A stretch of 58,858 bases of DNA from Bacteroidia bacterium (lineage in GTDB: Bacteria; Bacteroidota; Bacteroidia; Bacteroidales; GWF2-35-48), in NCBI GenBank assembly GCA_016212695.1, contig JACREX010000147.1:1-58858 (forward strand). The letters are read 5' to 3'. Numbering within the stretch: the first letter of the stretch is position 1; each line of letters begins with the position of its first letter. Made by a program: the position numbers and the translations under genes. Below, piece after piece: positions 8,733-58,207 of this stretch. The notes beneath the pieces are model-generated. The model did no database searches and had not been told where the DNA came from. It saw only the letters and a list, made by a program, of their open reading frames with translations.

Positions 8733-8843
8733 AATTCTAAATTTATTTGTTAATTTATTTATTTGATGATGTTCCGATGGATAATTTAATATTGGCAATC
8801 TCTGCTTTTAAATTGTCGATTTCCTGAATTTTGGATTTTAATA
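8714..8843. repeat. 130-bp direct repeat, copy 1 (gene end, spacer, gene start)
   Basis: 129/130 identical to 11553-11682; offset 2839 bp. Confidence 0.93.
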
Positions 8844-11571: not shown

Positions 11572-11682
11572 AATTCTAAATTTATTTGTTAATTTATTTA
11601 TTTGATGATGTTCCGATGGATAATTTAATATTGGCAATCTCTGCTTTTAAATTGTCAATTTCCTGAATTTTGGATTTTAATA
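11553..11682. repeat. 130-bp direct repeat, copy 2
   Basis: 129/130 identical to 8714-8843. Confidence 0.93.
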
Positions 11683-15136: not shown

Positions 15137-15217
15137 AATTTTTTTGATTAAAGGTATTTCTTTGTAAAGATACTGGAATTTTATATAAAAAAAATCAAAA
15201 ATGTTTGTCAAGCAAAT

Positions 15218-38974: not shown

Positions 38975-38994
38975 TTTAAATAATGGATTTCACT

Positions 38995-40014
38995 TTAATA
39001 TCTGTCACACGGTATCGCTTTATTGGGTGTTATAGTGCTTGGTGCCGTATAAATAACAGATATTTCAAAAGCGCCTCGGCTTTGAGTGGCTGCTTTCAGT
39101 TCGGAAATATTCAGGTCATAGCTGAACCCGATATCAAAATCATGATAATTCAATCCGGCGACAAAAAACACGGCATCCATATTCCTGTTATACCCATTTC
39201 TTGCATAGCTGCCAATCCAGAATGAATTTAGTTTAAGAAAATTTGCAGGCAGAACATATCCGATATTAGCTCCCGCAACAATATCGTTCGCATTTTGCAT
39301 ATTCATGAAAAGCGCTTTGGGCGCGGCATAGAACTGCTTGGTGATATTGAATTTCACTTCTATATGGAAAACCTGCCTCATGGGCAATTGGTTGTTTGAA
39401 GACAGATACGATTCTTTCGGTTGTGTAAGATGATACATGGCAAATCCCACCTGCGGCTCGAACCGTTTGAATTTTTTGCTCCAGAGAGCGCCTGCATTTA
39501 GATCAAAATACGAAGGTTGTTCGGTGCTGCCCGGTTCATTGCTTAACAAGTTTGAGTTAAATTGTCCGATGGTGATATCCCATTGTGCCGGATACGTCTG
39601 GCCGCTGAGAGAATAAGACTTCATAACATATCCGGCCTGGATGCCGAAATGCAGGGAATTAAAATCAGCGAGTTTTTTATGATATGCAAAAGAAAGATAA
39701 AATTTATTTGCCACCAGGTCAATGTTCCCGGATTTATCATTGATATAATTGATTCCCCAACTGAAATTTTCAGTGTAAATATACCACTGGTGATCGAACC
39801 CCAACGATTGCGTAATATATGGAACAGAGATGGATTTCCATTGGGAACGGTATATGCCCATGGCCCGCCAGTCTCCGTTACAATATCCTGTTAATGCCGG
39901 ATTCAGGGCAAGAGGGGCGGCATAAAATTGTGAAAAATGAATATCCTGCGAAAAGGAGTTTTTTCTCACAAGCATCAATACTGCAAGGAATACCAATAAA
40001 AAATATTTTTTCAA
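38995..40014 (-). CDS. PorP/SprF family T9SS outer-membrane protein
   Basis: QDIHFSQFYAAPLALNPALTG, YRSQW, GFSYD..S.L, GAFEIS; TTG start at 40014 or 40032. Confidence 0.9.
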   Translation of the reverse strand: MKKYFLLVFLAVLMLVRKNSFSQDIHFSQFYAAPLALNPALTGYCNGDWRAMGIYRSQWKSISVPYITQSLGFDHQWYIYTENFSWGINYINDKSGNIDLVANKFYLSFAYHKKLADFNSLHFGIQAGYVMKSYSLSGQTYPAQWDITIGQFNSNLLSNEPGSTEQPSYFDLNAGALWSKKFKRFEPQVGFAMYHLTQPKESYLSSNNQLPMRQVFHIEVKFNITKQFYAAPKALFMNMQNANDIVAGANIGYVLPANFLKLNSFWIGSYARNGYNRNMDAVFFVAGLNYHDFDIGFSYDLNISELKAATQSRGAFEISVIYTAPSTITPNKAIPCDRY

Positions 40015-40034
40015 TTCAACTGTATTTTGCAAAC

Positions 40035-40083
40035 AAAAATAGTATTATTTTTACAAAATTAAAAAATAGTATTACTTTTACAA
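40035..40083. promoter_or_regulatory. 22-bp direct repeat x2 in the divergent promoter region
   Basis: aaaaatagtatta(t/c)ttttacaa at 40035-40056 and 40062-40083; overlaps the minus-strand TATTTTTG -7 box. Confidence 0.65.
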
Positions 40084-40106
40084 TAAGTTAAAAAATTAAA
40101 TAGCCG

Positions 40107-43100: not shown

Positions 43101-44546
43101 AATCAAACCCTGACTGAATATAATCCCACTTATATTTGGGATTTTGGCAACGGAGGATCTTCCATTTTGGAAACGCCCAGTTTCAGTTATGTTATGCCGG
43201 GAACTTATTACCTGACTATGCAAACAACCACGTCGCATGGATGCATTGATAAAGACACGATGATTATTCAGGTGGGAGGCCCCTGGGCGGAAATTATTTT
43301 AAGCGACAGTATGATCTGTAAAAGCGATACGGTTGCATTTAATATTACTGATACAATTTCTATTAGTTCCGTGTCATGGAATTTTGGCGATGGGTATGCC
43401 AGTACAAATTTTGCTCCTCAGCATCAATACAGCTATTATCCTGATACCGGGTATTTTGTTGTTACGCTGAATGCTTATTCCGGCTCATGCCAGATGTATC
43501 CTGCAAAAACCGATACGATACATGTTATTGATGTTATAGCCCGTTTTAACAGGGGCAACCAGGATGCAGATACATCGGAATGTCAGCCGTACACTATTTA
43601 TTTCTTCAATCTTTCTACAGGCGCTGATTTATGGAGTTGGAATTTTGGCGATGGAACAACATCAAATACCCAGTTTCCTCCTCCGCACTTATTTGTTAAT
43701 GCCAACCAAAGCAATATGGTTTATAATGTATCCCTGATTATTGCCAGTAGTATAGCCGGTTGTAAAGATACCGTCATAAAACCCGTGGTCATCTATCCCA
43801 CACCGGATATAACAGTTTCAAATGATACGTTAATCTGTATTGGCGGTAATGCCAGCCTGCATGCAACCGGAGGATCCGGCATACTGTGGAGCCCGGTTCA
43901 GGGATTGAGCAGCGCTACATCTTATGACCCGGCAGCGGGGCCGACATTGACAACAAATTATCATGCATTGATTGCAAGCATGTATGGTTGCCAGAATACG
44001 GATTCTGTTATGGTACAGGTTCAGCAAATGCCTACATGGATAAACCTTCATGATACAACTATTGTTATCGGCGAAGTTGTGAATATTTCTTTTGATGTGG
44101 ATCAGAATAATATTTCTTATCAATGGACTCCGGATTATCACCTTTCCTGCACCACTTGCCCGAATCCTGTTGCACAACCGTTGCATTCCACGGAATATAT
44201 AATCAGGTTTGTTGACAGTTCAGGATGTTTTGTACGCACAGATACTATACGTATTAATGTTGACGCTAATTTTTCAGTTGCTGTTCCAACTGTTTTCACT
44301 CCCAATGGAGATACTCATAATGATACTATATATGTTAAAGGCTGGGGAATAAAAAGAATTAAAAAGTTTTCGATATACAACCGGTGGGGGCAGTTGATGT
44401 TTCAGACAGATGACATCCATGTTGGATGGGATGGAACCTATAACGGCCAGAAACAGCCGCCGGATACTTATACCTATTTTGTAGAAGTTGAACTTCTTGA
44501 TGAAACTACCATGAGCAAAAAGGGAAACTTTAGTTTACTGCGATGA
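40107..44546 (+). CDS. Multi-PKD surface protein with T9SS type B (gliding-motility-associated) C-terminal domain
   Basis: Many W.FGDG PKD repeats; VPTVFTPNGD.HND..IYNRWG..WDG..KG..LLR terminus. Confidence 0.92.
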   Translation: MKDRIYLIFLFVFFFSVSLRAQVTASFSASQTTGCGNLPLVNFFNMSTGSGSLSYVWNFGNSNTSVLQNPSTSYPNPGDYLVVLTVTNGTQSDTAAAMIHVYNIPTAIFTSGNHDGCIPLTVNFQDGSTVTGSTIIQWQWYFGDGYESNDQNPVHMYQTAGSYPVSLQVTDAHGCVSTTYNLSDYVHATIVPVIQFTSDYTSYCLVPLTVNFTNTTVGSTALTYNWTFGDGGTSTLQNPSHTYVDSGFYDVSLTVIDQYGCSNDTTITDYMDLTIVTASFSVVEGDTVCQNQMVHFNNTSGVPGWWIYGNGTSGTLDSTIYPNTGNVTVTLIAAPGTPCADTISRNIVVIAPPIANFSLDDEYGCKVPHTVHFTNQSTGAVSWAWAFGDNNTSAVQNPTNIYNTQGTFIINLAIASYYGCRAAHSDTVYIEFPVADFLNDTNMGCKPLPVPFTNSSHCNTTFDNISSYIWTFGDGGTSILQNPTHTYTQPGNFWVRLTITTAHGCTAKDSLIVNVGSHQHPGFVLDNYIICAQDTIKFTNTSTDRDTIDYYNWSSSSPVIFGSDTIPLPPTIVRNTVDTGYMSIQLIVGYNGCKDTLIDSIYVNGPIIKTRSVVTSLMNCNNPYQYFMTTVTQGVQYWVWNWRDSSLVDTTIQDTIMHTFPVSEPSTPDRMVLIYAVNDTTGCIYKDSILVHPKDIHANFDSMAWHDTICYTPNLFTASSFKDAFFWNWNFGDNTPATGWGGNMVSHVYDTSGTFTVWLYAKSEVQNELQCVDSVSRQVRVFKPEVEFRADTLIGCAQSPITVPFHSQAFSNDIGLMAWLWTFGDGQVATDTFVTHSYPIANYYTVSLQVTDSLGCINSLTKNNFIASLSVTSDFNSPDTIYCTGEPVSLNSTSSFGTPTDAAYQPIHWLWYFGNGDSSLVQNPMMSYPVKGDYDVTLIVYDTLGCSDTLIITNYLQAQSINAQFRLVLNGVYVFSDSAVSVADTNCYPVQIGSHNLTNQTLTEYNPTYIWDFGNGGSSILETPSFSYVMPGTYYLTMQTTTSHGCIDKDTMIIQVGGPWAEIILSDSMICKSDTVAFNITDTISISSVSWNFGDGYASTNFAPQHQYSYYPDTGYFVVTLNAYSGSCQMYPAKTDTIHVIDVIARFNRGNQDADTSECQPYTIYFFNLSTGADLWSWNFGDGTTSNTQFPPPHLFVNANQSNMVYNVSLIIASSIAGCKDTVIKPVVIYPTPDITVSNDTLICIGGNASLHATGGSGILWSPVQGLSSATSYDPAAGPTLTTNYHALIASMYGCQNTDSVMVQVQQMPTWINLHDTTIVIGEVVNISFDVDQNNISYQWTPDYHLSCTTCPNPVAQPLHSTEYIIRFVDSSGCFVRTDTIRINVDANFSVAVPTVFTPNGDTHNDTIYVKGWGIKRIKKFSIYNRWGQLMFQTDDIHVGWDGTYNGQKQPPDTYTYFVEVELLDETTMSKKGNFSLLR

Positions 44547-44566
44547 AGGAATTTTAATGTAATAAC

Positions 44567-44595
44567 AAAAAAGCAGGTGTCGAGCCTGCTTTTTT
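44567..44595. terminator. Bidirectional intrinsic terminator
   Basis: AAAAAAGCAGG-tgtcgag-CCTGCTTTTTT between convergent genes. Confidence 0.85.
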
Positions 44596-44596
44596 G

Positions 44597-47500
44597 TTAT
44601 TGTAGTATTAATTTTAGAAGATTTCTTTTATCTCCTTTACATATTTTTAATAAGTACACGCCCCTAGGTAAATTTTTCACATCAATGATTTCCTTATTTA
44701 TATTATGTATTATCTTCTTAGTCATAACGGCTCCTGTAATATCTGTAATTTCAAAAAATGATTCTTGTTGGAGTATTTCAGAGAACTCAATTGTTAATTT
44801 ATTTTTTGCAGGATTGGGATAGACGGTGATAAAACCATCGTCTTGTTCCATTGTAAGAATACCGACATTATCATCAACATAAATCGAATCGGTTGCATAA
44901 CATCCATGAATATTTCCAACAGTGACAAAATACCATCCGTATGCATTTACGCTGATTTGTTGAGTGCTTTCACTTGTAGACCATAGATAACTGTCAAACC
45001 CGGAACCGGCGTCAAGGGTTGCAGGCAGCGCTGTATGCAATGTGTCAGGAGTTAAATTAACAGGAGGCAGCGGATGAACCAGTACAATTATACTGTCTGT
45101 ACTGCTGCACCCTGAAGTATTCGTAACCGTAACGGTAAAAACAGTATTTGACGTAGGCGATACAACTATATTGGGTTGGTTATCGCCATTGCTCCATTGA
45201 TATACCGTTCCTCCGCTTGCCGTAAGAGAAACGCTGTTGCCCACGCAAATGGTAGTATCATTGCTTAGGGTAATAACCGGCGAGGGCGATACTGAAACCA
45301 GCAATGAGTTTGAAATAGTTCCGGTTCCGCAAGCATTAATTCCTTTTACGGCGAGCATTACATTTCCAAAATATGTGGGACTCCATGAAACGGCTGCTGT
45401 TAAGCTATCGCCGGTAATTGTTCCTGCACTGGATGGTAAAAGATACCAGATGTATGAAGTAGCGCTAGGGGCTCCCTGCGTTGTGTAAGAGGTAACTGTA
45501 GTGTCATTCGTACAAACCGATGTCGGCCCGGTTGGCGTTCCGGCTATAGAAGGAATTTGGTTTATTATTATATGAACGCTATCAGCCGCAGTACAGTTAT
45601 TGGCGCCTGTTACGGTTACATAATATACTCCTCCGGTTGAAACATTAATTACGTTTGTCGTGTCGCCAGTATTCCATAAATATGTTATGCCGCCGCTTGC
45701 AAAAACCGCCACTGTATCACCGTAACAGAATGTTGTGTCAGGCCCTGCAGATGCATTTACAAAATAAACCACGACACTTACTGTATCTGAATTATGACAA
45801 CCGTTTCCATCTGTTACCGTAACCATATAATCTGTGGTATTTTGAGGAGCAACAGATATGGTAGCCAAATCTTCTCCCGTGCTCCAGTGATATAATATTC
45901 CTCCGGTTGCCGTAAGAGAAGTATCGTTTCCCCTGCATATAGAGACGTCATTTCCTGCATTGGCAACAGGCAATGGGTTTACAAAAAGATGAATGCTGTC
46001 GCTTGCAGTGCAGCCATTACTATCATATACGGTAACATAAAATATTCCCGCTATTGTAATGAAAATATCTGCTGTGGTATCGCTATTGTTCCATAAATAG
46101 GTAACGCCTCCGCTTGCCGTAAGATGTGCGGTATCGCCAAAGCAGATGGTCGTATCCTGTCCCGCCTCCGCAATAGGCGAAATATTAAAATTAACAGTTA
46201 CGCTGTCAGTAGAAAAACATCCGGTTGATCCGGTTACGGTTACAAAATATATTCCCGCAATAGTAACACTTATTTCTGAAATTGTGTCACCCGTATTCCA
46301 CGCATAAGATGTTCCTCCGCTGGCCAAAAGGATTGCAGTGTCTCCATTACAAATCGTAACATCCTGTCCCGCCTCTGCGTCAACAAAATTGACAACTACC
46401 AAAACCGTATCAGAATTGTGGCATCCGTTATTGTCGGTAGCCGTTACGATATATTCTGTTGTATTAAACGGTACGGTATAGATTGTTGAAATCGTATCTC
46501 CTATGCTCCACACAAAGTGAATACCTCCGGTAGCCGAAAGAAAGGCGGTATCATAACGGCAAATGGTTACATCAACTCCTGCGTCTGCCAGGGGCAAAGG
46601 ATTTATTGTTACGAGGATACTGTCATAGGAATAGCAACCAATATTATCAAAGACTGTAACATAATAATAAACATCGGAAGCAGGGCTCACATCAATTCCT
46701 TGAGTGGTTTCGCCTGTATTCCAGAAATAGGTAACACCTCCGCCAGCCAGCAGATGAGCCGTATCTCCAAAACAAACGGCAATATTATTCCCGGCCTCGG
46801 CAATAGGTAAATTATGAACTGACAATGGCAATGAAAACGATTCTGTGCATCCGTTAGAGCCGGTTATTGTAACACTAAACGGACCCGCAATGGTAACATA
46901 AATAACTGAATCCGTAGCGCCTGTATTCCAACTGTAGGAAGTACCGCCGGTTGCCGTGATAGTGGCAGTATCTCCCGTGCAAATAGCCGTGTCGCCGGAA
47001 ACCGAACCGCCGGAATAATTCACTATAACAAGAACACTGTCCCTGTCAGAACAACCCAAAATATCAAATACTGTGACCTGATAAGCTGTTGAGGAATCCG
47101 GGCTGACAGATATGGATTGAGTGTTTTCATTGGTACTCCATAGATATGAAATACCCCCTGATGCATTCAGTATCGCTGTGTCATACCTGCATATTGCCAA
47201 ATCATTTCCCGCAAAGGCAGAAGGGAGAGGGTTAATAGTAATGAGAACTGTGTCGGTATTGGAACAAGCATTCATGTCTGTGACAGTAACAATATAGGCA
47301 CCTCCTGTAACAACCGGATTCAGAGCATTGGTAACATTATTGCTCCAGAGGTACGAAACGCCGCCGCCGGCATAAAGCATGGCAGTATCATTCTGACAAA
47401 CTGAAGTATCATTTCCGGCATATGCAATAGGTAAACTTAGTACCGTAACAGTGAGGCTGTCGTTTTTCGAACATCCCTGGGGACTGGTAATTGTAACAAA

Positions 47501-50350
47501 ATAAGTAGTTGTGATTGATGGAGAGACCGAAATATTTTGGAACGTCTCTCCTGTACTCCATGAATAACCCGATCCTCCATGCGCTGAAATCTGAATGGTG
47601 TCTTTGAAACAGATCGCTGTGTCGGATCCTGCTCCTGCTGCATCGGCAAACAGGTTGACAGTAACCGTATCACTGTTACTGCAGTTGTTCGCATCTGTTA
47701 CTGTAACTGAATAATCAGCAGTTGCAACAGGATTGACACTGATCTGTTGTGTATTTTCTCCCGTACTCCATGAATAACTGATACCGCCTGTTGCATTAAG
47801 CAAGATGGTTGATCCGATACAAATTATTGTGTCGCTACCGGCAAAAGCGGCAGGCAGAGGATTAATGGTAACAATAACCGTATCTTTATTTGCACATCCG
47901 TTTGAGCCTGTAACTGTAACATAGTATATGTCTGCGATCGTAACAGGATTCTGTGAAACATTAACACCATTGCTCCACTGATAAGAAATACCGCCTGAAG
48001 CATGAAGAAAAGCCGTGTTACCAAAACAAACAGCAGTGTCGGATCCCGCATTGGCATTGGGTAAGCTGAGAATATTTACGATTACGCTGTCGGTATCAGT
48101 ACAGTTATTGGCGCCTGTAACTGTAACATGGAAAATGGTACTGGCCGATGGAGTCACAACAATAATCGGGTTGGTTTCTCCTGTTGACCAGGAATATGAA
48201 TTTCCGCCGCTTGCATGAAGAATGACAGAAGAACCCTGACATACTGTTGTGTCGGGTACTGCAACAGCAGTTATTGTAATAACAGTCACAACAACAGTGT
48301 CTGTTTTTGAACAGTTATTGGCATCAGTCGCGGTTACAATGTAATCAGATGTTGTATTCGTGGAAACAGTTATTTGCTGCAAAGTTTCTCCTGTGCTCCA
48401 GGAATAAGACGTGCCTCCTGAAGCTGTTAATGTAGCCGATGTTCCTATGCAAATAGTATCGTCAATTCCGGCATTGGCAACCGGAAGGGGATTTACTGTT
48501 ACCACAACGCTGTCAATGCTGCTGCAGTTTCCGGCATTTGATACAGTAACACGATATATCCCGGCAGTAACAACATTATTGGAAGCCGTATTAATCCCGT
48601 TGCTCCATTGATATATTGTTCCGCCGCCGGCAAGCAGGTGGGCCGTATCGCCTGAGCAAACTGCGGTGTTGGGCCCTGCTTCTGCAACAGGGTATTGATA
48701 AACAGAAATATTTGAACTATTGGTAGTGCCCGTAACTACAGGGCTTGATGACACAATCCTGATCCTGTAGCCTGTGCCTGCAGGAGTGATTAAAGGAATT
48801 GTCGCATGAATGGTTCCTGCGTTTGACCCGTTTAATGTTCCAATATCAACAGGCGATGCAAAACTGCCTGTAGCATCGGAAAGCTGGGCTGTAAAAATAT
48901 TGCCGCTGTCGAAAACGCCGAAAATAGTAAAGGGGACATCAATGGCTGATCCCACGCAATAGACGAGCGGAGTAATTGTTCCGGTGAAAATTCCATATAA
49001 ATCGAGAATTTCAATATGCCCGTGTTGAAGTACGGTTGATAATGTTGTAAAAGTTGAATCAATAACTTCTACGGGAGTCGGTGAGTTAATAAAATTCAGA
49101 TCAGTATGTTGTCCGATAGTGCCATTGACTGTGAATTTCACGGCGAATATTATGGAAGAATCAACTTTGTCTTGTCCTGCCAAAGTGAGGTCGTACCATG
49201 AAAAAGTGAGTTTTCCGTTTGCTGTCTGCGATGTGCCGAAACTACTTGCATCCATGCCGGGCAATCCGAACTGCTCCACGCTGAGGTATGATACAAGCGA
49301 CTGGTCAAACTGAATAGTCCCCTGCAAAGAAATGATGTTGTAAAAATCTTTTACACGGACCGGAACCACCACCTGTGAGGCCGGAGCTGCGGCAATAGAA
49401 TCTATAATGAGCGTTACAGTTCCGGATGGATTTCCGGTGATATTTACTTTACCGTTTGTTGAATTATATGGAATAGCGGACAAGCTTGTATCAACGAATT
49501 CAAGAGGAGTAACAGAATTAGTAAATGAAATATCAGAATACTGCCCCGCATTTCCGGCTGCATTAAAACGAATGGCGAAAAGGGCCGTATTATCCGGTTT
49601 TGTCTGCCCGGCAAGCGTCTGATCCGACCAGGAGAATGTGAGTTTTCCTGTTGACGTTTGTGTAGTACCGAAATTGCCGGCGCTCAACCCGGAAAGGTTG
49701 AATTGTTCAACATTCATGAATGATGCCACGGCAGGATCAAATTCAATGGTCCCCTGCATGGAAACTATGTCGGTGAAATTATCTACTCTAACAGGAACGA
49801 CAACCTGGGTTCCTGTTAAAGTATTAACAATATCTGCTTTGATAGTAACTCCGCCCGGGCCGGTTCCTGTTATTTGTATTAGTCCAGGAGATGTGGTATA
49901 AGGAACCGTATTAAATGTGATATCAACAAACTCTACTGCTGCAACAGAACTTGTGAGGCTCACCGAAGAGTTTTGTCCGGTATTTCCGGTAAGCTGAAAA
50001 CGCAGGGCAAAAACCACTGAATTGTCGGCAAGAGATTCACCTGATAAATCGCTGTCGAACCAGGAAAATGTAACTTTTCCGTTTCCTGCCTGAGCAGCGC
50101 CGAAATTTGAACTGTTCAGCCCGGGAAGATTATATTGTTCAGTTCCGGAAAAAGTTGCAACAGCCGGGTTGAACTCGATGGTCCCCTGCATGGAAAGTAT
50201 GCCTGTGAAATTTTTTACCTTTGCGTGAATCACCACCTGCTGTCCCTGTGATCCGCTAACTGTATCAAATGTTAAAATCACATTCGATGAAAAAACCGGG
50301 TAAAATGGGATTATAAATAACAGGATTAATAAAGATAATTTTGTATTCAT
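44597..50350 (-). CDS. T9SS type A cargo with three N-terminal cohesin-like domains and an Ig-like repeat stalk
   Basis: Three ~140-aa repeats (V.VPVRV.NF..I.S.QGTI.FDP...GK.TFSW...F...F); many AG.DT..C.G....L.ASGG..Y.WS repeats; VYPNPA...GVYLLKI CTD. Confidence 0.85.
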   Translation of the reverse strand: MNTKLSLLILLFIIPFYPVFSSNVILTFDTVSGSQGQQVVIHAKVKNFTGILSMQGTIEFNPAVATFSGTEQYNLPGLNSSNFGAAQAGNGKVTFSWFDSDLSGESLADNSVVFALRFQLTGNTGQNSSVSLTSSVAAVEFVDITFNTVPYTTSPGLIQITGTGPGGVTIKADIVNTLTGTQVVVPVRVDNFTDIVSMQGTIEFDPAVASFMNVEQFNLSGLSAGNFGTTQTSTGKLTFSWSDQTLAGQTKPDNTALFAIRFNAAGNAGQYSDISFTNSVTPLEFVDTSLSAIPYNSTNGKVNITGNPSGTVTLIIDSIAAAPASQVVVPVRVKDFYNIISLQGTIQFDQSLVSYLSVEQFGLPGMDASSFGTSQTANGKLTFSWYDLTLAGQDKVDSSIIFAVKFTVNGTIGQHTDLNFINSPTPVEVIDSTFTTLSTVLQHGHIEILDLYGIFTGTITPLVYCVGSAIDVPFTIFGVFDSGNIFTAQLSDATGSFASPVDIGTLNGSNAGTIHATIPLITPAGTGYRIRIVSSSPVVTGTTNSSNISVYQYPVAEAGPNTAVCSGDTAHLLAGGGTIYQWSNGINTASNNVVTAGIYRVTVSNAGNCSSIDSVVVTVNPLPVANAGIDDTICIGTSATLTASGGTSYSWSTGETLQQITVSTNTTSDYIVTATDANNCSKTDTVVVTVITITAVAVPDTTVCQGSSVILHASGGNSYSWSTGETNPIIVVTPSASTIFHVTVTGANNCTDTDSVIVNILSLPNANAGSDTAVCFGNTAFLHASGGISYQWSNGVNVSQNPVTIADIYYVTVTGSNGCANKDTVIVTINPLPAAFAGSDTIICIGSTILLNATGGISYSWSTGENTQQISVNPVATADYSVTVTDANNCSNSDTVTVNLFADAAGAGSDTAICFKDTIQISAHGGSGYSWSTGETFQNISVSPSITTTYFVTITSPQGCSKNDSLTVTVLSLPIAYAGNDTSVCQNDTAMLYAGGGVSYLWSNNVTNALNPVVTGGAYIVTVTDMNACSNTDTVLITINPLPSAFAGNDLAICRYDTAILNASGGISYLWSTNENTQSISVSPDSSTAYQVTVFDILGCSDRDSVLVIVNYSGGSVSGDTAICTGDTATITATGGTSYSWNTGATDSVIYVTIAGPFSVTITGSNGCTESFSLPLSVHNLPIAEAGNNIAVCFGDTAHLLAGGGVTYFWNTGETTQGIDVSPASDVYYYVTVFDNIGCYSYDSILVTINPLPLADAGVDVTICRYDTAFLSATGGIHFVWSIGDTISTIYTVPFNTTEYIVTATDNNGCHNSDTVLVVVNFVDAEAGQDVTICNGDTAILLASGGTSYAWNTGDTISEISVTIAGIYFVTVTGSTGCFSTDSVTVNFNISPIAEAGQDTTICFGDTAHLTASGGVTYLWNNSDTTADIFITIAGIFYVTVYDSNGCTASDSIHLFVNPLPVANAGNDVSICRGNDTSLTATGGILYHWSTGEDLATISVAPQNTTDYMVTVTDGNGCHNSDTVSVVVYFVNASAGPDTTFCYGDTVAVFASGGITYLWNTGDTTNVINVSTGGVYYVTVTGANNCTAADSVHIIINQIPSIAGTPTGPTSVCTNDTTVTSYTTQGAPSATSYIWYLLPSSAGTITGDSLTAAVSWSPTYFGNVMLAVKGINACGTGTISNSLLVSVSPSPVITLSNDTTICVGNSVSLTASGGTVYQWSNGDNQPNIVVSPTSNTVFTVTVTNTSGCSSTDSIIVLVHPLPPVNLTPDTLHTALPATLDAGSGFDSYLWSTSESTQQISVNAYGWYFVTVGNIHGCYATDSIYVDDNVGILTMEQDDGFITVYPNPAKNKLTIEFSEILQQESFFEITDITGAVMTKKIIHNINKEIIDVKNLPRGVYLLKICKGDKRNLLKLILQ

Positions 50351-50402
50351 AATTTTTTTTCAGGTCTAATGTTATTGAATTTATTTTGAAATGAAAACCT
50401 GT

Positions 50403-50435
50403 AAAAGCCACGCCATTGAAGGCATGGCTTCTTTT
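50403..50435 (-). terminator. Intergenic stem-loop (weak terminator or stabiliser) between the two giant genes
   Basis: Minus strand AAGCCATGCC-ttcaat-GGCGTGGCTTTT immediately after the stop codon. Confidence 0.6.
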
Positions 50436-53400
50436 TATCGGATTACCACCATCTTCTTCATCCCCGTAAACTTATCAGCCTGCATCTTTACAATGTACGA
50501 TCCGCTGCCGGTATTACAATCCCATGTAACCTGATTCATCCCTTTTGCATAATTATCTGTAAACTGTTTAACCGTTTCGCCGAGATAGTTGAGAATTGTG
50601 ATAGTAACTTTTTCATCTTTTGGTAATACAAAACTGATGTTTGTATAATCGCTGAATGGGTTCGGATAGTTCTGTAAAAGCGCGTATCCGCAGTTTTCAT
50701 GTTGCAGCAAAGCGGTAGCATTTTCAATAGTAATACTTGAATTACCGCTGATGATGTCAAGCGTATTCAGGTTGTTGTCGTATGCTTCCGCAAGGGTTGA
50801 CGAAGAATTAATCGAAATCTGTGCTTGTGTTCCGGCATTGCCCATCACATTAAATAAAAGTTCAAAGGCAACAGATCCATCCGGTAGCGTAACGCCATTA
50901 AGATTTTCTGTGCTCCATAATGCCGTGAGTATTCCTTCGCCTGTCCTGTTTGTCCCGAAGAAATTTGTAAGTGCAGAATTATTTGTGCCAACATAACTTA
51001 GCAGTGACGGATCCCAGGTAATGGTAAACTGATATCCGCTGACAGCATTGAAATTTTCAACTTTCACGGGAACTGTAATCAGATTTCCTTCTGGAGCAGT
51101 AACACTTTCCATTGTAAACGTAACACTGCCTGTTTCGCCAGATTTTGAAATGGATGCGTTCCAACTGTTATTTACGTCTCCGAGTTTCGCTGCCACAAAA
51201 TTCTGGTCGGTCAATACAGAAATATCACTGTAGGATCGTGAATTTTCAAACGGGAAAGGATTCATTACATCGGTAAACGAGAAATCAGAATTGACAAATT
51301 TCCATAATGCTCCGTTCGGGAACGTAGTTGATGTCTGCAACACAACAGAACGCATCAGCACAAGATCGAGCGAGCTAACCGAAGAAGAAGCATTCACGTC
51401 TGCGGCAATAATTTTGTAAGCCGAATTCAGTGCTTGTGTTCCGAGAATGTGACGCTGCGTTAAAATAATATCAAGCGTGGTGATGCCATTGCTGGTATTC
51501 ACATCATTGTTTTTATCAGGGGTGATGGTATAGCTCTGACCGTCGTTTACGCTGAACAGGTACTGTCCGTTGGTAGTGGTGGAATAGGTTTGGGTGGTTC
51601 CTCCAGCGCATGTAAGCGTAACTCCTGGAACTGCCACGCCGGTTTCTGTGCGGACAATACCGCTGACATTAACAACGGCCGGCGTGGATGAAACGGTCAC
51701 ACTGACTGTTCCCGCAGTACTATTGCATCCGTTCACACTGGCAACTACCGAATAAGTTCCACTCATAGTTTGCTGTGCATTGGGTATGCTTGGATTCTGC
51801 AAAGCAGACGTAAAAGAATTAGGACCTGTCCATGAATAAGAAGCGCCTGCAACAGTGCTTGCATTAAGCTGTATGGTTCCATTAAGCATTACCGGTGAAT
51901 TGCTGGATGCAACCGGCGCTCCCGGCAATGGATTCACGGTAACATTTACGGTATTGGATGTTGCGCTGCAACTGCCGCTTGTAACAACTACATAATAGCT
52001 GCCTGTTGAACTTACCGTAATGGCCTGTGTTGTCTGCCCTCCGGGCGACCATACATTTCCCGTAGAGCTGCTTGAAGTGAGAATAACAGAATTTCCGGCA
52101 CAGAAGGTGGTTGGCCCGCCGGGTGTTACTGTGGCAGCTACCGACTGGCTTATGGTGAAATTTGTATTGCTTTCATCCATTACCGTGGGGCTGCTGAAGT
52201 CTTTTATTTTGACTTTGCACTGTGTTGATGAAACATTGGGAACTGTCCATGCATAGGTGCCGCTTAGAGTATTATAATTGCTTACAATAGTTGTCCATGT
52301 TGCGCCATTATCTTTGGTGTAATCAATAGTATAATTATTGGAAGTGGAAACAGAATTCCATGTGATGTTCATGGTATTGCAGCCTGTTAGAGTTTCTCCG
52401 CCGTTTGGCGCTGTCACTGTGATGGTGGCGGCAGGAAGGCCTATGGCAAATGTTGCATTGCTCTGGTCGGTTTTGCAGGTATTGAGATTATCGGTGATTT
52501 TTATAAGGCAGTTTGAAGAACTTGCAGATGGAACCGTCCATGAATATGTATTATTCGTGATGGTCTGATTGAAGACGATATTTGTCCAAGCGCTTCCATT
52601 GTTGGTTGAGTAATCAATGTTATAACTGTTCGATGCGCCCAGCGATGTCCATGTGATACTATAAGATCCTCCAACCGTAAGACTTTCTCCACCGTTAGGC
52701 GTTGCCACGGTAATAGCCGGTTTTAATGTAAAAGTGGCATCGCTCACATCGGTTTTGGCAGAATTTCCGGCATCGGTTACCCGCACAAGACATAGTGTGG
52801 AAGGGGTGTTTGGCATAGCCCAGTCATAAGTGATGCTCCCCGTTCCTCCGGCGCTGTAACTTGATGTGATGGTGCTCCATGTGCTGCCGTTGTTGGTTGA
52901 GTATTCAATCTTATATGTACCGGAACATCCGCCTGCAGTCCAGTGTATCGAGGTTTGCGTGCATACGCGCCACTCTTCGCTGCCATTGTCGCCGTTGGGC
53001 GAAGAAATCACCAGCGCAGGATTAATGCTGAATACGGCATTGCTCACATCGTACACTGAAGGATTATTATATTCCGTAACTTTTACCAGACACTTGTTGG
53101 AGTAAATAGCCGGAATGGTCCATGAATAGGTGCCATCGTTTTCAGTAACGCTGGCAATAGGCGACCAGGTTAATCCGCTGTCGGCAGATAAATACAGGCT
53201 CACATAGGTTCCGTTGAAATACTGGTTTGTCCATGTTATACTATAGGATGAAGCATAATATAATGTATTGCCCCCGTTAGGTGTGAGCAGTTGCGGCTGG
53301 GCCGGAGTAACCGTGAAAGAGGCATTGCTCACATCGTACTTGCAGGTATTATTATAATCTTCAACTTTGATTAAATAATTGCTTCCCGGCGAGTTTGGAA

Positions 53401-56400
53401 TAGTCCAGGAAACAGAGTGGGCAGAAGTATAAGAATTAATACTCGTCCATGTTGATCCATTGTTGCTCGAATAATAAACAGCGAAATAAGTCGAACCCGG
53501 ATCAGAAACCCAACTGATGGTTTGCGATGTGGCTACCTGCCAGCTTTCTCCGCCATTGGGCGATGTTACAATCACATCATCGTTCGGCTTCATGGTAAAT
53601 GTTGCATCGCTTGAATCAAATGCCGAGGGATAATTTACGTTCTGCACTTTTATTCTGCAATTACCCGAAAGGGGCGATACGGTCGGGATCGTCCAGTTGT
53701 AGCTTGAACCGGAAGCAGAACTTGTAATGAGGTTCCAAGCAGCGCCGTTATTGGTTGAATAATAAATTTTATAAGATCCACTCAATCCCCATGAATTCCA
53801 TGTTACAGACTGAGTGTTGCATGCTTCCAGGTTCTCGCCCCCGTTCGGAGCGGTAACAACTAAAGAAGGAATGGCAATGGTAAAGTTCGCATTGCTCACA
53901 TCATAGGTTGTGGGATTATTATATTCACTCACCCTTACCAAACAGTTTACAGAAGGGGCATTGGGAACAGTCCATGAATAAGTGCCGTCGTTCTCTGTTA
54001 CATTAATTATTTGCGTCCAGGATGTACCGTTGTTGGTCGAGTAATCTATAGCAACAAAACTCGAAGTGAGATACCCGCTCGACCAGGTAATATTATATGC
54101 GGTGCCTACATACCATGTAACTGCTGTATTTGGGCTGTTAACCGTAATGTAAGGAGTCGGAGGAGCAATGGTAAAGTTTGCATCTGATATATCATAAATG
54201 CAACTGTTATAATAATCTTCAACTTTCACCAGATTCTGTGTGCCCGGATAATTGGGAATGGTCCATGCATAGGTATGACTTGAGGTGTAAGAGTAAAGCG
54301 AAGTCCACCCTGTTCCATTGTTCGTGGAATAATATACATTATAATAAGTTGACGTTGGTTCAGTCACCCATGTGATGTTCTGCGATGTGGCCACCTGCCA
54401 GTTTTCACCGCCATTGGGAGCGGTTACTATGATATCGGTATTTTTCACAAGAGTAAATACGGCATTGCTGGAATCTTTATAAGCGGCATTGCCATTGTCT
54501 GTAACTTTAACCAAGCAGTTTGCAGAATTAATGCTGGGAACAGGATTCCACGTATAGCTTCCGCTCGAAGCGCTGCTTGTGATCGTTGACCACGAAGAGC
54601 CATTGTTAGTTGATAATTTCAAATTAAATGAATTGGATGTTCCCGCATAATTCCATGTAATGCTTTTTGATGAGCAGCCTTTCCAGCTTTCGCCGCCATT
54701 GGGCGAGGTAACGGTGATATAGGGAACAGCAATGGTAAAGTTTACATTGCTTACATCAAAAGTTGCCGGATTGTTATATTCACTCACCCTTACTAAACAA
54801 GTTGCCGAAGGAGCATTGGGAACAGTCCACGAATAGGCGCCGTCGTTCTCTGTCACATTAATTACCTGTGTCCATGATGTTCCGTTGTTGGTCGAGTAAT
54901 CTATAGCGACAAAACTCGAAGTGAGATATCCGCTCGACCAGGTGATATTGTATGCATTGCCCACATACCAGGTAACTGCTGTATTTGGGCTGTTAACCGT
55001 TATGTAAGGCATTGGAGGAGCAATGGTGAAGTTTGCATCCGAAAGATCATATATGCAACTATTGTAATAATCTTCCACTTTCACAAGGTTCTGTGTGCCC
55101 GGATAATTGGGTATAGTCCATGCGTAAGTATGACTTGACGTATAGGAGTAAAGCGATGTCCATCCTGTGCCATTGTTGGTGGAATAATATACATTATAAT
55201 AAGTAGAGGTCGGTTCTGTCACCCATGTGATATTCTGCGATGTGGCCACTTGCCAGTTTTCACCGCCATTGGGAGCAGTTACAATGATGTCGGTATTTTT
55301 CACAAGAGTAAACACAGCATTGCTGGAATCTTTATAAGCCGCATTGCCATTGTCTGTAACTTTAACTAAGCAGTTTGCAGAATTAATGCTGAGAACAGGA
55401 TTCCATGTATAGCTTCCGCTTGAAGCGCTGCTTGTGAGTGTTGTCCACGAAGAGCCGTTATTGGATGATAATTTCACATTAAATGAATTGGATGTTCCGG
55501 CATAACTCCATGTAATACTTTTGGAGGAACAGCCCTTCCAGTTTTCTCCGCCATTGGGCGAGGTAACGGTGATATAGGGAACAGCAATCGTAAAGTTTAC
55601 ATTGCTCACATCATAGGTTGTCGGATTGGTATAGTCGCTTACCTTTACAAGGCAATTTGCCGAAGGTGTATTCGGAACATTCCATGAATAGGCGCCGTCG
55701 TTCTCTGTTACCGCAGCAACATCTGTCCATGTTGAACCATTGTTTGTGGAATACTCAATTTTCACATACGTTGCAGTTACGTATTGGGTAGACCAGGTAA
55801 TATTGTAACTATTGCCCACATACCAGGTAACTGCCGTATTCGGGCTTGTCACGGTGATCACCGGCGTTGGAGGAGTGATGGTAAATACCGCATTGCTCAC
55901 ATCAAATTTGCATGTATTATTATAGTCTTCCACTTTTACTAAATTCTGCGTTCCCGGATAGTTGGGAATGGACCAGGAATACGTATGGTTTGACGTATAG
56001 CTTATAAGCGATGTCCACCCAGTACCGTTATTGGTCGAATAATAAACATTAAAATAAGTAGAGGTCGGCGCAGAGACCCACGTTACAGTTTGTGATGTTC
56101 CAACCTGCCAGTTTTCGCCTCCGTTAGGAATGGTTACAATTACATCCGTATTGGGAGTAATGGTAAATACGGCATTGCTGGAATCAAGAACCGCGGGTGT
56201 GCCATTGCTGATTACTTTTACTAATGCAGTTGCAGATGAAATGCTCGGCACAGGATTCCATGAATAAGAGCCGCTGGTTGCCGAAGCGCTGAGCGTTGTC
56301 CATGCAGCGCCGTTATTGGTAGAATATTTAACCGTAAAACTATTGGTAACGCCGGCATAATTCCATGTGATGCTTTGCGTGGAGCATCCGTTCCAGCTTT

Positions 56401-58207
56401 CGGTTCCATTAGGCGCTGTAACGGTAATGTATGGCGCGGCGATCGTAAATGCCGTATTGCTGACATCATAAGTAGAGGGAGTATAATAATCGCTGACTTT
56501 GACAAGACATTGTGTTGACAATGTGTTTGGAACAGTCCATGCATACGTGCCGTCATTCTCTGTTACGGCAGCGACATCTGTCCACGTAGAACCATTGTTT
56601 GTGGAATATTCTATTTTAACATACGAAGAAGTGACATACTGTGTTGTCCATGTAATGTTGTAACTGTTGCCCACATACCAGGTAACTGCCGTATTCGGGC
56701 TTGTCACGGTTATTACAGGAGTTGGAGGCGAGATGGTGAAAACCGCATCGCTGATATCATATTTGCAGGTGTTGTTGTAGTCTTCCACTTTCACTAAATT
56801 CTGCGTTCCCGGATAGTTGGGTATAGTCCATGAATAGGTATAGTTTGACGTATAGCTTGTGAGCGATGTCCACCCTGTACCGTTATTGGTTGAATAATAA
56901 ACATTGAAATACGTTGAAGTCGGCGCAGAAACCCATGTTACAATTTGCGATGTACCCACCTGCCAGCTTTCTCCCCCGTTTGGAACCGTAACTATCACGT
57001 CCGTATTGGGAGAAATGGTAAATACAGCATTACTTGAATCAACAGTAGCGGAGTTTCCGGTATCATATACTTTAATCAGGGCTTGTGTTGATGAAACATT
57101 CGGAACAGGGTTCCAGTTATAGCTGCTGCCCGATGCGGATGAGGTAATGGTTGTCCATGTAGAGCCGTTATTAACCGAATATTTTATGGTGAATGATGTG
57201 CCGGTTCCCCCGGAGTTCCATGTAATGGTCTGGGAATAACAACCGGTGAGCGTCTCGCTGCCGTTTGGCGCAGTAACCGTAACAAAAGGCGGAGCAATGA
57301 TAAAATTCACATTGCTAATATCATAGGTGGCCGGATTTCCCAGGTCGGTAACTTTTACCAAGCATTGTGTTGACGGTGTATTGGGTATGAGCCATGAATA
57401 CGAACCGGAATTGGTGGTATTGGTTACAACAGGCACCCAGCTTGTGCCATTATTGGTGGAGTAGTCAATTTTAATGGCATTGGAGGTAACCCACTGCGAT
57501 GTCCAGGTGATGTTGTAAGTTTTCCCCACATACCAGGTGACATTTGTATTGGGCGAGGTAACTGTGATTACCGGCGTTGCGGGAGTAATGGTGAACAGGT
57601 TGTCGCTGATATCGTACATGCAGGACGTATTGGTATGATCCTGAATTTTTATGAGGCACGATGTGGAAGGATTGTTAGGCACGCTCCAACTGTAGGTGCC
57701 GTTTGTGATATTTTGGTTGTTGACAATATCCGTATAGGAAGCGCCTCCGTTGAGCGAATATTTTATATCGTAATAATTGGTGGTGCCGGAAGCCACAAAT
57801 GTGACCGCCTGTGTGCTTCCGCCCTGCCAGGTTTCACCTCCGTTAGGGGTAATAAGCAACAGGGGCGCAGTGATAGAGAATGTGGCATCGCTCACGTCGA
57901 AGGTTGCCGGGGTATTTGAATCAGTTACCCTCACTAAGCAGGATGTTGACGACACATTGGGAACTGTCCACGTATATTGGTAATTCGTGATATAAAGCCC
58001 GCTGGTGACCGATATCCACGACGAGCCGTTGTTTACGGAATAGTCAATGGAATAATTGTTCGATACCCCCGATGCGTTCCACGTAATTATTTTCTGCGTG
58101 CATCCCGGCCACACTTCGCCGCCATTGGGCGCTGTGATGGTGATGGTTCCTGCAAATAATGCCAATGACACAAACATTAATCCGAGTAAAAGATAAAATT
58201 TCTTCAT
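50435..58207 (-). CDS. Giant T9SS type A cargo: 21 Ig-like repeats, dockerin-like module, cohesin-like domain, CTD
   Basis: Signal peptide; 21 'V..PNGGE/PNT...YSTNNG..W...Y.W..P..CLVKV' domains; NGITTLDI / AADVNASSSVSSLDL; cohesin-like ITVPVKVENF..YQFTITWDP; QNYPNPFS CTD. Confidence 0.87.
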   Translation of the reverse strand: MKKFYLLLGLMFVSLALFAGTITITAPNGGEVWPGCTQKIITWNASGVSNNYSIDYSVNNGSSWISVTSGLYITNYQYTWTVPNVSSTSCLVRVTDSNTPATFDVSDATFSITAPLLLITPNGGETWQGGSTQAVTFVASGTTNYYDIKYSLNGGASYTDIVNNQNITNGTYSWSVPNNPSTSCLIKIQDHTNTSCMYDISDNLFTITPATPVITVTSPNTNVTWYVGKTYNITWTSQWVTSNAIKIDYSTNNGTSWVPVVTNTTNSGSYSWLIPNTPSTQCLVKVTDLGNPATYDISNVNFIIAPPFVTVTAPNGSETLTGCYSQTITWNSGGTGTSFTIKYSVNNGSTWTTITSSASGSSYNWNPVPNVSSTQALIKVYDTGNSATVDSSNAVFTISPNTDVIVTVPNGGESWQVGTSQIVTWVSAPTSTYFNVYYSTNNGTGWTSLTSYTSNYTYSWTIPNYPGTQNLVKVEDYNNTCKYDISDAVFTISPPTPVITVTSPNTAVTWYVGNSYNITWTTQYVTSSYVKIEYSTNNGSTWTDVAAVTENDGTYAWTVPNTLSTQCLVKVSDYYTPSTYDVSNTAFTIAAPYITVTAPNGTESWNGCSTQSITWNYAGVTNSFTVKYSTNNGAAWTTLSASATSGSYSWNPVPSISSATALVKVISNGTPAVLDSSNAVFTITPNTDVIVTIPNGGENWQVGTSQTVTWVSAPTSTYFNVYYSTNNGTGWTSLISYTSNHTYSWSIPNYPGTQNLVKVEDYNNTCKFDVSNAVFTITPPTPVITVTSPNTAVTWYVGNSYNITWSTQYVTATYVKIEYSTNNGSTWTDVAAVTENDGAYSWNVPNTPSANCLVKVSDYTNPTTYDVSNVNFTIAVPYITVTSPNGGENWKGCSSKSITWSYAGTSNSFNVKLSSNNGSSWTTLTSSASSGSYTWNPVLSINSANCLVKVTDNGNAAYKDSSNAVFTLVKNTDIIVTAPNGGENWQVATSQNITWVTEPTSTYYNVYYSTNNGTGWTSLYSYTSSHTYAWTIPNYPGTQNLVKVEDYYNSCIYDLSDANFTIAPPMPYITVNSPNTAVTWYVGNAYNITWSSGYLTSSFVAIDYSTNNGTSWTQVINVTENDGAYSWTVPNAPSATCLVRVSEYNNPATFDVSNVNFTIAVPYITVTSPNGGESWKGCSSKSITWNYAGTSNSFNLKLSTNNGSSWSTITSSASSGSYTWNPVPSINSANCLVKVTDNGNAAYKDSSNAVFTLVKNTDIIVTAPNGGENWQVATSQNITWVTEPTSTYYNVYYSTNNGTGWTSLYSYTSSHTYAWTIPNYPGTQNLVKVEDYYNSCIYDISDANFTIAPPTPYITVNSPNTAVTWYVGTAYNITWSSGYLTSSFVAIDYSTNNGTSWTQIINVTENDGTYSWTVPNAPSVNCLVRVSEYNNPTTYDVSNANFTIAIPSLVVTAPNGGENLEACNTQSVTWNSWGLSGSYKIYYSTNNGAAWNLITSSASGSSYNWTIPTVSPLSGNCRIKVQNVNYPSAFDSSDATFTMKPNDDVIVTSPNGGESWQVATSQTISWVSDPGSTYFAVYYSSNNGSTWTSINSYTSAHSVSWTIPNSPGSNYLIKVEDYNNTCKYDVSNASFTVTPAQPQLLTPNGGNTLYYASSYSITWTNQYFNGTYVSLYLSADSGLTWSPIASVTENDGTYSWTIPAIYSNKCLVKVTEYNNPSVYDVSNAVFSINPALVISSPNGDNGSEEWRVCTQTSIHWTAGGCSGTYKIEYSTNNGSTWSTITSSYSAGGTGSITYDWAMPNTPSTLCLVRVTDAGNSAKTDVSDATFTLKPAITVATPNGGESLTVGGSYSITWTSLGASNSYNIDYSTNNGSAWTNIVFNQTITNNTYSWTVPSASSSNCLIKITDNLNTCKTDQSNATFAIGLPAATITVTAPNGGETLTGCNTMNITWNSVSTSNNYTIDYTKDNGATWTTIVSNYNTLSGTYAWTVPNVSSTQCKVKIKDFSSPTVMDESNTNFTISQSVAATVTPGGPTTFCAGNSVILTSSSSTGNVWSPGGQTTQAITVSSTGSYYVVVTSGSCSATSNTVNVTVNPLPGAPVASSNSPVMLNGTIQLNASTVAGASYSWTGPNSFTSALQNPSIPNAQQTMSGTYSVVASVNGCNSTAGTVSVTVSSTPAVVNVSGIVRTETGVAVPGVTLTCAGGTTQTYSTTTNGQYLFSVNDGQSYTITPDKNNDVNTSNGITTLDIILTQRHILGTQALNSAYKIIAADVNASSSVSSLDLVLMRSVVLQTSTTFPNGALWKFVNSDFSFTDVMNPFPFENSRSYSDISVLTDQNFVAAKLGDVNNSWNASISKSGETGSVTFTMESVTAPEGNLITVPVKVENFNAVSGYQFTITWDPSLLSYVGTNNSALTNFFGTNRTGEGILTALWSTENLNGVTLPDGSVAFELLFNVMGNAGTQAQISINSSSTLAEAYDNNLNTLDIISGNSSITIENATALLQHENCGYALLQNYPNPFSDYTNISFVLPKDEKVTITILNYLGETVKQFTDNYAKGMNQVTWDCNTGSGSYIVKMQADKFTGMKKMVVIR

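Follow-up and report, generated by a model that had tools for sequence, protein, structure and literature searches.

What do cohesins and a dockerin, modules that are the textbook glue of Gram-positive cellulosomes, do on two giant, non-catalytic proteins of a Gram-negative bacterium? This question is raised by contig JACREX010000147.1 of a Bacteroidia bacterium (assembly GCA_016212695.1; Bacteroidales, GWF2-35-48), whose 58,858 nucleotides constitute the window analyzed here. In this window, two co-oriented minus-strand open reading frames (ORFs) encode the proteins P0001 (50435-58207, 2590 aa) and P0002 (44597-50350, 1917 aa). A preliminary description of this DNA proposed that P0002 is a scaffoldin-like hub that docks up to three P0001 rods, which could chain further into a branched network. 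Our analysis indicates that a conserved, uncharacterized, enzyme-free cohesin-dockerin module of type IX secretion system (T9SS) cargo is real, and that the pair probably builds a surface fiber. The best explanation, with a probability of roughly 0.4, appears to be that the pair is a conserved T9SS surface-fiber module in which P0001, its dockerin initially latched, is released and docks on the tip cohesins of P0002.

The cohesins and the dockerin

The profile searches with PF00963 and PF00404 and the cargo census proposed in the preliminary description gave a clear answer: the assembly (4.03 Mb, 259 contigs, 90.5% complete) encodes exactly four cohesins and exactly one dockerin above the cut-offs, all of them in P0001 and P0002, and dockerin-bearing T9SS cargo other than P0001 is absent from this 90.5%-complete assembly. 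Such a closed system, with one dockerin and four cohesins in one genome, counts in favor of reading the two proteins as a pair. The absence of a recognizable catalytic domain was likewise borne out, with no catalytic family detected in either protein at E<=0.01 in Pfam and NCBIfam scans and no carbohydrate-binding module (CBM) family at the same threshold in the Pfam scan. A cellulosome can be rejected because the census shows no dockerin-bearing enzymes; the sole dockerin resides on the non-catalytic P0001, and there is no CBM.

Both proteins start with a hydrophobic leader, seen by eye in the translations. According to the translation of the ORF and the Pfam and NCBIfam searches, P0001 continues with 21 rod repeats, a pair of Ig_7-like domains, a dockerin-containing module (hereafter X-Doc), a cohesin and a type A C-terminal sorting domain (CTD). 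The X-Doc module (51146-51700, minus strand; aa 2170-2354) consists of a beta-sandwich resembling CarboxypepD_reg and SdrD_B (CarboxypepD_reg scores 25.4 bits, below the cut-off of 32.3, over profile positions 2-54 of 82) into which the dockerin is apparently inserted. The dockerin itself (51350-51508, minus strand) is type I-like, with two Ca-loop/helix repeats, and PF00404 (cut-off 22.9) recognizes it at 28.5 bits in the cut-out module, at 24.8 bits in the full-length protein and at 32 bits in the genome-wide scan. In a phmmer comparison with solved dockerins, the segment aligned over both repeats with 8x39_A (E 2.8e-5), 4uyq_B (5.6e-4) and 5nrk_B (0.011). The 22-residue segment characteristic of dockerins, made up of a 12-residue Ca loop and a helix, is present twice in P0001, where each loop reads D1-N3-S5-D12; across 30 homologues, the second loop retains D1 in 30, N3 in 28, S5 in 26 and D12 in 30.

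AlphaFold2 (AF2) models the X-Doc as five strands, three helices and three further strands, with a per-residue confidence (pLDDT) above 90 in most blocks; the three dockerin helices are at residues 75-86, 94-100 and 110-120 of the cassette, i.e. the X-Doc together with the cohesin that follows it. Because of this strands-helices-strands order, the models suggest that the dockerin is inserted within the small X sandwich. Right after the last sandwich strand, at about 51166-51192 (cassette residues 170-178), there is a near-invariant motif, K-L-G-D-V-N-N-S-W, in which the D-V-N-x-S signature of both Ca loops recurs and in which K172, G174 and D175 are invariant in 50 sequences; this motif may be a third Ca site.

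The cohesin of P0001 (50765-51124, minus strand), located in cis with the dockerin, scores 43.7 bits with PF00963 (cut-off 24.1; modules scanned as cut-outs). When modeled with AF2, the last 421 residues of P0001, which comprise the X-Doc, the cohesin and the CTD, gave a mean pLDDT of 88.2 and a predicted TM-score (pTM) of 0.78. The rows from the fold searches span model residues 187-335, the cohesin part, with the X-Doc outside; Foldseek matched solved cohesins with TM-scores of 0.74-0.80, and the top 20 rows in VIA-align were all cohesins (Z 17.0-11.7, the best other entry being at 10.3), led by 4ums_A (Z 17.0, root mean square deviation 2.3, 139 aligned residues), 4dh2_C (16.9) and 1ohz_A (15.5). 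The model superposes on type I, type II, type III and non-cellulosomal cohesins, with their nine-stranded jelly-roll fold. The possibility that this domain is a CBM or a generic beta-sandwich was rejected given that all of the top 20 VIA-align rows are cohesins. The corresponding doubt raised in the preliminary description, namely that the modules could be other beta-sandwiches, is accordingly removed by the fold for the P0001 cohesin, and the P0002 cohesins are judged by sequence alone.

When the X-Doc and the cohesin were modeled without the CTD (335 aa, 50-row alignment), the mean pLDDT was 93.4 and the pTM 0.89, with a pLDDT of 75 in the linker block at residues 181-190. Because a pTM of 0.89 was obtained for two modules joined by a loop, AF2 is read as placing the X-Doc in a rigid arrangement with its own cohesin.

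P0002, as seen in the translation of the ORF and the Pfam search, consists of the leader, three cohesins, one domain of about 100 aa, 17 Ig_7-like repeats and a type A CTD. The cohesins, all on the minus strand, are located at 49934-50275 (43.5 bits as a cut-out, 42.6 in the genome frame), 49439-49846 (48.5 and 47.9) and 49085-49417 (45.8 and 45.4); the second shares 35% identity with the cohesin of P0001 (E 3e-23). The stalk spans 44861-48691 (minus strand; aa 554-1830, with a gap at 1603-1690), where Ig_7 scores 81.5 bits in Pfam and the repeats were delineated with a profile hidden Markov model built from the protein itself (self-HMM). The CTD at 44606-44824 (minus strand) scores 50.8 bits with Por_Secre_tail (58.2 in the genome scan; cut-off 27) and 38.9 bits with TIGR04183 (cut-off 23). 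With a CTD anchor, 17 Ig_7-like repeats and three N-terminal cohesins, P0002 has the architecture of a fibrillar adhesin.

In P0001, the self-HMM detects 21 tandem rod repeats of about 90 aa (52151-58144, minus strand; aa 22-2019) at 102-127 bits per domain, and in the whole-protein Pfam scan these repeats resemble Kre9_KNH, Reelin_subrepeat-B and DUF7362 (70.7, 35.8 and 32.5 bits). Between the rod and the cassette lie two Ig_7-like or HYR-like domains (51674-52135, minus strand; aa 2025-2178), of which the Ig_7 self-HMM built from P0002 matches aa 2025-2097 at 34.4 bits and aa 2098-2178 at 9.2 bits. The CTD at 50444-50668 (minus strand) scores 36.2 bits with Por_Secre_tail (44.2 in the genome scan) and 35.6 bits with TIGR04183. 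By the same architectural comparison, P0001 is an anchor plus a stalk that lacks a distinct tip domain.

The preliminary description of the layout was accurate in these respects: two adjacent, co-oriented giant genes that both end in type A CTDs, as confirmed by the ORFs and the Por_Secre_tail and TIGR04183 scores; rods of exactly 21 domains; a dockerin-like module followed by one cohesin at the end of P0001 (28.5 and 43.7 bits); and three tandem cohesins (43.5, 48.5 and 45.8 bits) on a long stalk of 17 Ig_7-like repeats in P0002. The dockerin and cohesin coordinates mapped with Pfam fall inside the approximate positions originally proposed. In the whole-protein Pfam scan of full-length P0001 and P0002, Cohesin is absent at E<=0.01, and the excised modules score 43-48 bits; standard annotation of repeat-rich giants will miss such cohesin modules.

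The machinery required for secretion of these proteins is encoded in the assembly, with SprA at 2669.7 bits (cut-off 200) and GldM at 316.8 bits (cut-off 180), as well as a PorP/SprF protein inside the window at 146.5 bits. Por_Secre_tail is above the cut-off in at least 150 proteins of the assembly (150 of the 336 candidates were scored); this T9SS cargo set is unusually large for 4.03 Mb, and only two of its members contain cohesins or a dockerin.

Conservation of the gene pair and spread of the cassette

Among 40 relatives, the three-cohesin protein was found in a single genome, that of a genus mate (G002); another genus mate (G001) and 38 other families of the order lack it. The gene upstream of the three-cohesin gene in G002 encodes a 2595 aa protein that ends, like P0001, in X-Doc-cohesin-CTD. 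The genome of G002 contains three dockerins and eight cohesins, and that of G001 contains neither. A search of genome contigs with a P0002-type protein yielded 19 loci, 10 of which span three cohesins (41-58% identity) and come from metagenome-assembled genomes (MAGs) of Bacteroidales, Bacteroidia and Marinilabiliales. At all 10 three-cohesin loci, the same-strand gene immediately upstream ends in X-Doc-cohesin-CTD, with an extra single-cohesin gene in between at one of them, and carries 9-22 rod repeats of the P0001 type (21, 21, 21, 14 and 12 in the five uncut ORFs). The pair is therefore conserved in one of two genus mates and at 10 of 10 three-cohesin loci, which settles in the affirmative the matter of conservation left open in the preliminary description. 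Between the orthologues, the X-Doc is the best-conserved part (47-62% identity, compared to 32-49% for the cis cohesin); at the 10 three-cohesin loci, its identity amounts to 47-61%.

The remaining nine loci, six of them in Saprospiraceae-type MAGs, encode one or two cohesins, with no cassette within 10 kb upstream; all nine genomes encode X-Doc elsewhere (1, 1, 1, 20, 21, 17, 23, 16 and 22 modules). The six Saprospiraceae-type MAGs (G342-G347, loci L029-L034) contain 16-23 X-Doc modules each, in ORFs from about 265 to 5,700 aa, a large expansion of the cassette compared to the one copy in the genome analyzed here. A second locus in G002 (L035, G002:C80:1-16283) contains three co-oriented genes in which divergent paralogues repeat the arrangement of cassette genes followed by an N-terminal-cohesin gene: the first product, of at least 895 aa, terminates in X-Doc, about 190 unrecognized aa and a CTD; the second (3091 aa) terminates in X-Doc-cohesin-CTD; and in the third, of at least 1413 aa, an N-terminal cohesin precedes Ig_7/SprB repeats.

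The tail of P0001 is found far beyond the gene pair. With its last 421 residues as the query, 227 of 7,997 candidate longer proteins matched, and 113 of the 120 matches listed span 90% or more of the query, with identities of 29-48%. The passengers of the cassette include Peptidase_M43, PKD, HYR, C-type lectin, P_proprotein, GH18, metallophosphatase, LRR, cadherin, LamG and SBBP domains. With the X-Doc plus cohesin (335 aa) as the query, phmmer was run exhaustively against 1.84 billion representatives and retrieved 11,886 proteins at E<=1e-3, of which 7,914 remained at E<=1e-10 and 2,045 at the stricter threshold of E<=1e-30; in 223 of 355 collected proteins, we identified 228 full cassette copies, followed by a median of 94 residues that correspond to the CTD. 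As detected in these searches, P0001 shares its X-Doc-cohesin-CTD tail with thousands of Bacteroidota proteins, in which the X-Doc and the cohesin form a fixed cassette before the CTD. The phylum-wide search with the whole tail matched 138 of 301 genomes, mostly through the CTD alone (query residues 337-421), and hence does not provide a count of cassettes; among the matches listed, near-full-length ones come from at least 12 genomes.

Three relatives from the search of representatives differ in their module content. In a 3,228 aa protein (P0225), 12 cohesins are combined with 13 SprB repeats and a type B CTD of the CHU_C family. A 1,389 aa protein (P0255), in which the Dockerin_1 scores add up to 74.6 bits and five query stretches are matched, has a CTD and no cohesin. 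X-Doc is the last module of a 1,423 aa protein (P0316) that lacks both cohesin and CTD and is possibly truncated. The architectures with 12 cohesins and with dockerin but no cohesin suggest binding between proteins.

A candidate mechanism and its rivals

In the favored explanation, P0002 would be an anchored stalk, attached to the outer membrane through its C-terminal CTD, with 17 Ig-like repeats that place its three cohesin sockets at the distal end. P0001 would be a 21-repeat rod, the C-terminal end of which carries the only dockerin of the genome, within the X-Doc, with its own cohesin directly after; prior to docking, the X-Doc would lie on this cohesin, the two forming a compact unit. PorU removes type A CTDs, after which the cargo is either linked to anionic lipopolysaccharide at its new C-terminus or released. 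Once its CTD is cut off, P0001 would be released, and the dockerin would then plug, in a Ca2+-dependent manner, into the paralogous tip cohesins of P0002, with each stalk carrying up to three rods. The hub model calls for such release and re-capture because the C-terminal CTD would put the dockerin of an anchored P0001 at the membrane end. The favored explanation draws on the identity of the modules, on the gene order kept at the three-cohesin loci and echoed at the second locus of G002, on the X-Docs encoded elsewhere in all nine genomes without an upstream cassette, on the relatives with 12 cohesins or with a dockerin and no cohesin, and on the conservation of the X-Doc and of the second Ca loop. 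We infer the binding, the partner, the release of P0001 and the stoichiometry, and consider the scaffoldin hub plausible; the branched network is speculative. As for the earlier hub-and-network proposal as a whole, the modules on which it was built are genuine, are the only ones in the genome and are encoded in a conserved order, but the cassette tail proved ubiquitous and AF2 models the dockerin module and its own cohesin rigidly.

The computations aimed at binding did not favor a particular partner. The predicted complex of the X-Doc (185 aa) with the three P0002 cohesins (431 aa) gave ipSAE values of 0.02 and 0.02 against a mark of 0.32, with 30-row alignments and without controls, and this modeling result counts neither for nor against binding. 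Mean-field direct coupling analysis of the 228 cassette copies (effective number of sequences 221) returned gap artifacts as the top pairs; after removal of 29 gappy columns, 27 of the 70 top pairs link the X-Doc and the cohesin, below the chance expectation of about 51%, and these pairs center on hub columns 203, 230 and 291, mostly in the sandwich and not in the dockerin helices.

Several observations weigh against docking of P0001 on P0002. The first Ca loop is partly degenerate across the 30 homologues (D1 in 22, positions 3 and 5 variable, G7 in 30 and D12 in 30). The cassette is present on thousands of proteins with unrelated passengers, and because most of the carriers have no multi-cohesin gene next door, it is expected to have a function independent of P0002. 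Gene adjacency may mean only co-regulation of two surface fibers. Furthermore, should both proteins stay anchored, the plug would be cell-proximal and the sockets distal, some tens of nanometers away by a rough count of domains. Finally, with a pTM of 0.89 for the X-Doc and its own cohesin, and of 0.78 with the CTD included, the dockerin may be permanently occupied in cis.

This last point leads to a serious rival explanation. The preliminary description had itself set binding of the dockerin to its own cohesin against the hub, and the rigid unit predicted by AF2 is this cis outcome, the model being read here for rigidity and not for the class of the interface. Under this explanation, the dockerin and the cohesin of the cassette would bind within one chain, or the X sandwich would pack on the cohesin, to form a Ca2+-stabilized pedestal next to the T9SS anchor; the cassette would be structural and no connector, and the cohesins of P0002 would bind something else or serve as inert spacers. 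The confidence of the model (mean pLDDT 93.4 and pTM 0.89, with linker residues 181-190 still at 75) is in line with such a pedestal, as are the fixed order and position of the modules just before the CTD in 228 copies, a median of 94 residues from the end, and the attachment of the cassette to passengers as unrelated as Peptidase_M43, GH18, HYR, lectin and LRR domains. However, the predicted packing may not use the dockerin-binding face, and a cis-only function leaves the P0002 cohesins and the 12-cohesin and dockerin-only relatives without partners and the conserved gene order unexplained; on balance, we regard the pedestal as somewhat unlikely. Self-chaining, in which the dockerin of P0001 enters the cohesin of the next P0001, head-to-tail or in a domain-swapped manner, to build rod polymers in which P0002 may or may not serve as primer or branch point, exploits the presence of one plug and one socket in each cassette and the existence of genomes with 16-23 cassette proteins, in which many cargo proteins could be cross-linked. 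The predicted rigid intramolecular unit favors cis over swapped binding, and anchored cassettes would all be membrane-proximal, so that chains would run along the surface and not outward; of the explanations considered, this appears to be the least probable.

It also seems improbable, if slightly less so, that the two proteins are independent fibrillar adhesins, with the tip cohesins of P0002 gripping a foreign ligand, such as a protein of another cell or a polymer, P0001 acting as a separate rod, and the dockerin-like element serving no more than a structural role, as a Ca2+-binding insert in an SdrD_B/CnaB-like domain. EF-hand Ca sites are present in SdrD B domains, and SdrD_B matches the sandwich half of a paralogue of the cassette at 36.1 bits (cut-off 29.7). 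The anchor, the repeat stalk and the N-terminal tip domains also match the definition of fibrillar adhesins as given in the available part of the source (PMC8286594). Nevertheless, the alignment of the dockerin with solved dockerins extends over both repeats, its Pfam score exceeds the cut-off, and cohesins and X-Docs co-occur in the genomes examined for both (this one and G002) and are both absent from G001.

Docking of P0001 on P0002 could be one case of a Bacteroidota-wide, T9SS-coupled cohesin-dockerin code, in which a self-latched cassette opens after CTD removal and its dockerin binds stalk or scaffold proteins with 1 to 12 sockets. We find such a phylum-wide code doubtful. Should it exist, released cargo, here a 21-domain rod, would be re-captured into defined multi-protein surface fibers unrelated to cellulose, and this pair would be the minimal closed example, with one plug, three tip sockets and one latch.

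Genomic context and comparison with known systems

The two genes are separated by a gap of 84 nt (50351-50434) that includes a weak hairpin at 50412-50428. A hairpin with a 20-bp stem, detected in a consensus scan only, lies 3' of P0002 at 44558-44604, is shared with a convergent PKD gene and is likely a bidirectional terminator. This adjoining gene belongs to a region (36785-44546) that has the typical composition of a type B cargo module: it encodes a protein of 1479 aa that combines 10 PKD domains with a CHU_C sorting domain (40107-44546, plus strand), and divergent from it are the genes for PorP/SprF (38995-40032, minus strand) and for a TPR/PD40/OmpA protein (36785-38974, minus strand). 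At a distance, on the minus strand (5502-15211), are three tandem genes, overlapping by 44 nt, for proteins of 1098, 960 and 1205 aa that each contain a C-terminal Peptidase_S74 domain (endosialidase intramolecular chaperone; 39.6, 61.4 and 31.9 bits) and no other recognized domain; these are tail-fiber-like proteins within a bacterial contig.

Among cellulosome components, the clostridial scaffoldin CipA carries a C-terminal X-module and a type II dockerin that is bound by the multi-cohesin anchoring scaffoldins SdbA and OlpB. The organization of the pair described here is similar to CipA anchoring (solved entries 3kcp, 4fl4 and 5k39) in that a long non-catalytic protein with a C-terminal dockerin and X sandwich is accompanied by an anchored multi-cohesin protein, and the fold of the P0001 cohesin matches CipA-type entries at Z 16.0 (3kcp_A) and 12.0 (5k39_A). 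Unlike in the CipA system, the bacterium is Gram-negative, anchoring involves a T9SS CTD instead of S-layer homology domains, and enzymes, CBMs and enzyme-binding cohesins are lacking; furthermore, the dockerin is type I-like by sequence and is apparently located inside the sandwich, not after it, and the order of modules is X-Doc followed by cohesin as opposed to cohesin-X-Doc in CipA.

Non-cellulosomal cohesin and dockerin modules were reportedly surveyed by Peer et al. in 2009. The known cases of this kind, like the modules analyzed here, are cohesins and dockerins outside cellulosomes, sometimes on one polypeptide, and the P0001 cohesin resembles the Archaeoglobus fulgidus cohesin 2xdh (Z 15.5) and the Clostridium perfringens GH84C and GH33 cohesins 2vo8 (14.2) and 2w1n (13.9; see also 2o4e). 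The previously known modules, in contrast, are found on enzymes or small proteins that are not T9SS cargo and do not form a fixed pre-CTD cassette.

The available part of the study of 'Ca. Stygibacter' (Cloacimonadota) presents an in silico proposal of a cellulosome-like system with a CTD-bearing multi-cohesin scaffoldin (Williams et al. 2021, PMC8542988). There, according to the same part, dockerins are on GH18, GH57 and S8 and C25 peptidases and the scaffoldin contains CBM2/CBM3, whereas here the sole dockerin is on a non-catalytic rod and there is no CBM. The nearest precedents are this proposal and a pair from Chlorochromatium (Chlorobiota), where Cag_2038 and Cag_2037 are adjacent non-cellulosomal giants whose binding was modeled only by AlphaFold3 (bioRxiv 10.64898/2026.03.19.712371). 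As presented in the available portion of that preprint, one giant has 18 Ig-like domains and a C-terminal dockerin, and its neighbor has an N-terminal cohesin on an Ig-like stalk. That pair differs from ours in its type I secretion system export, RTX end and single cohesin, as opposed to T9SS and three plus one cohesins, in the alginate-lyase/epimerase-like domain of the cohesin protein and, so far as the available portion describes it, in having no dockerin-cohesin cassette.

The surveys of fibrillar adhesins (Monzon and Bateman 2021, PMC8286594; PMC9210967) describe, in their available parts, the same combination of an anchor, a long stalk of Ig-like repeats and tip domains, and Por_Secre_tail and CHU_C are named among the Bacteroidetes anchors (PMC8286594). 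The main text of these surveys includes no cohesin or dockerin; here, the tip consists of cohesins and the expected ligand is encoded next door. Dockerins have been reported in rumen Bacteroidetes, as stated in the available part of PMC6487960. In full-text searches on cohesins and dockerins in connection with T9SS or Bacteroidota, we found no description of the cassette or of the gene pair; Peer et al. 2009 and supplementary tables may list such proteins. The absence of the cassette from the literature may be due to whole-protein scans overlooking cohesins.

If the modules bind as their homology suggests, the cassette would provide a general route by which Gram-negative Bacteroidota bring secreted proteins together on the cell surface or capture them again there, and it would be a possible source of new orthogonal plug-socket pairs for protein engineering. 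The genome analyzed here, with one dockerin and four cohesins, represents a minimal test case. Compared to the cellulosomes from which they are best known, the same parts are found here on type IX-secreted, non-catalytic surface giants, and the tail in which they are combined is the cassette of thousands of uncharacterized Bacteroidota proteins.

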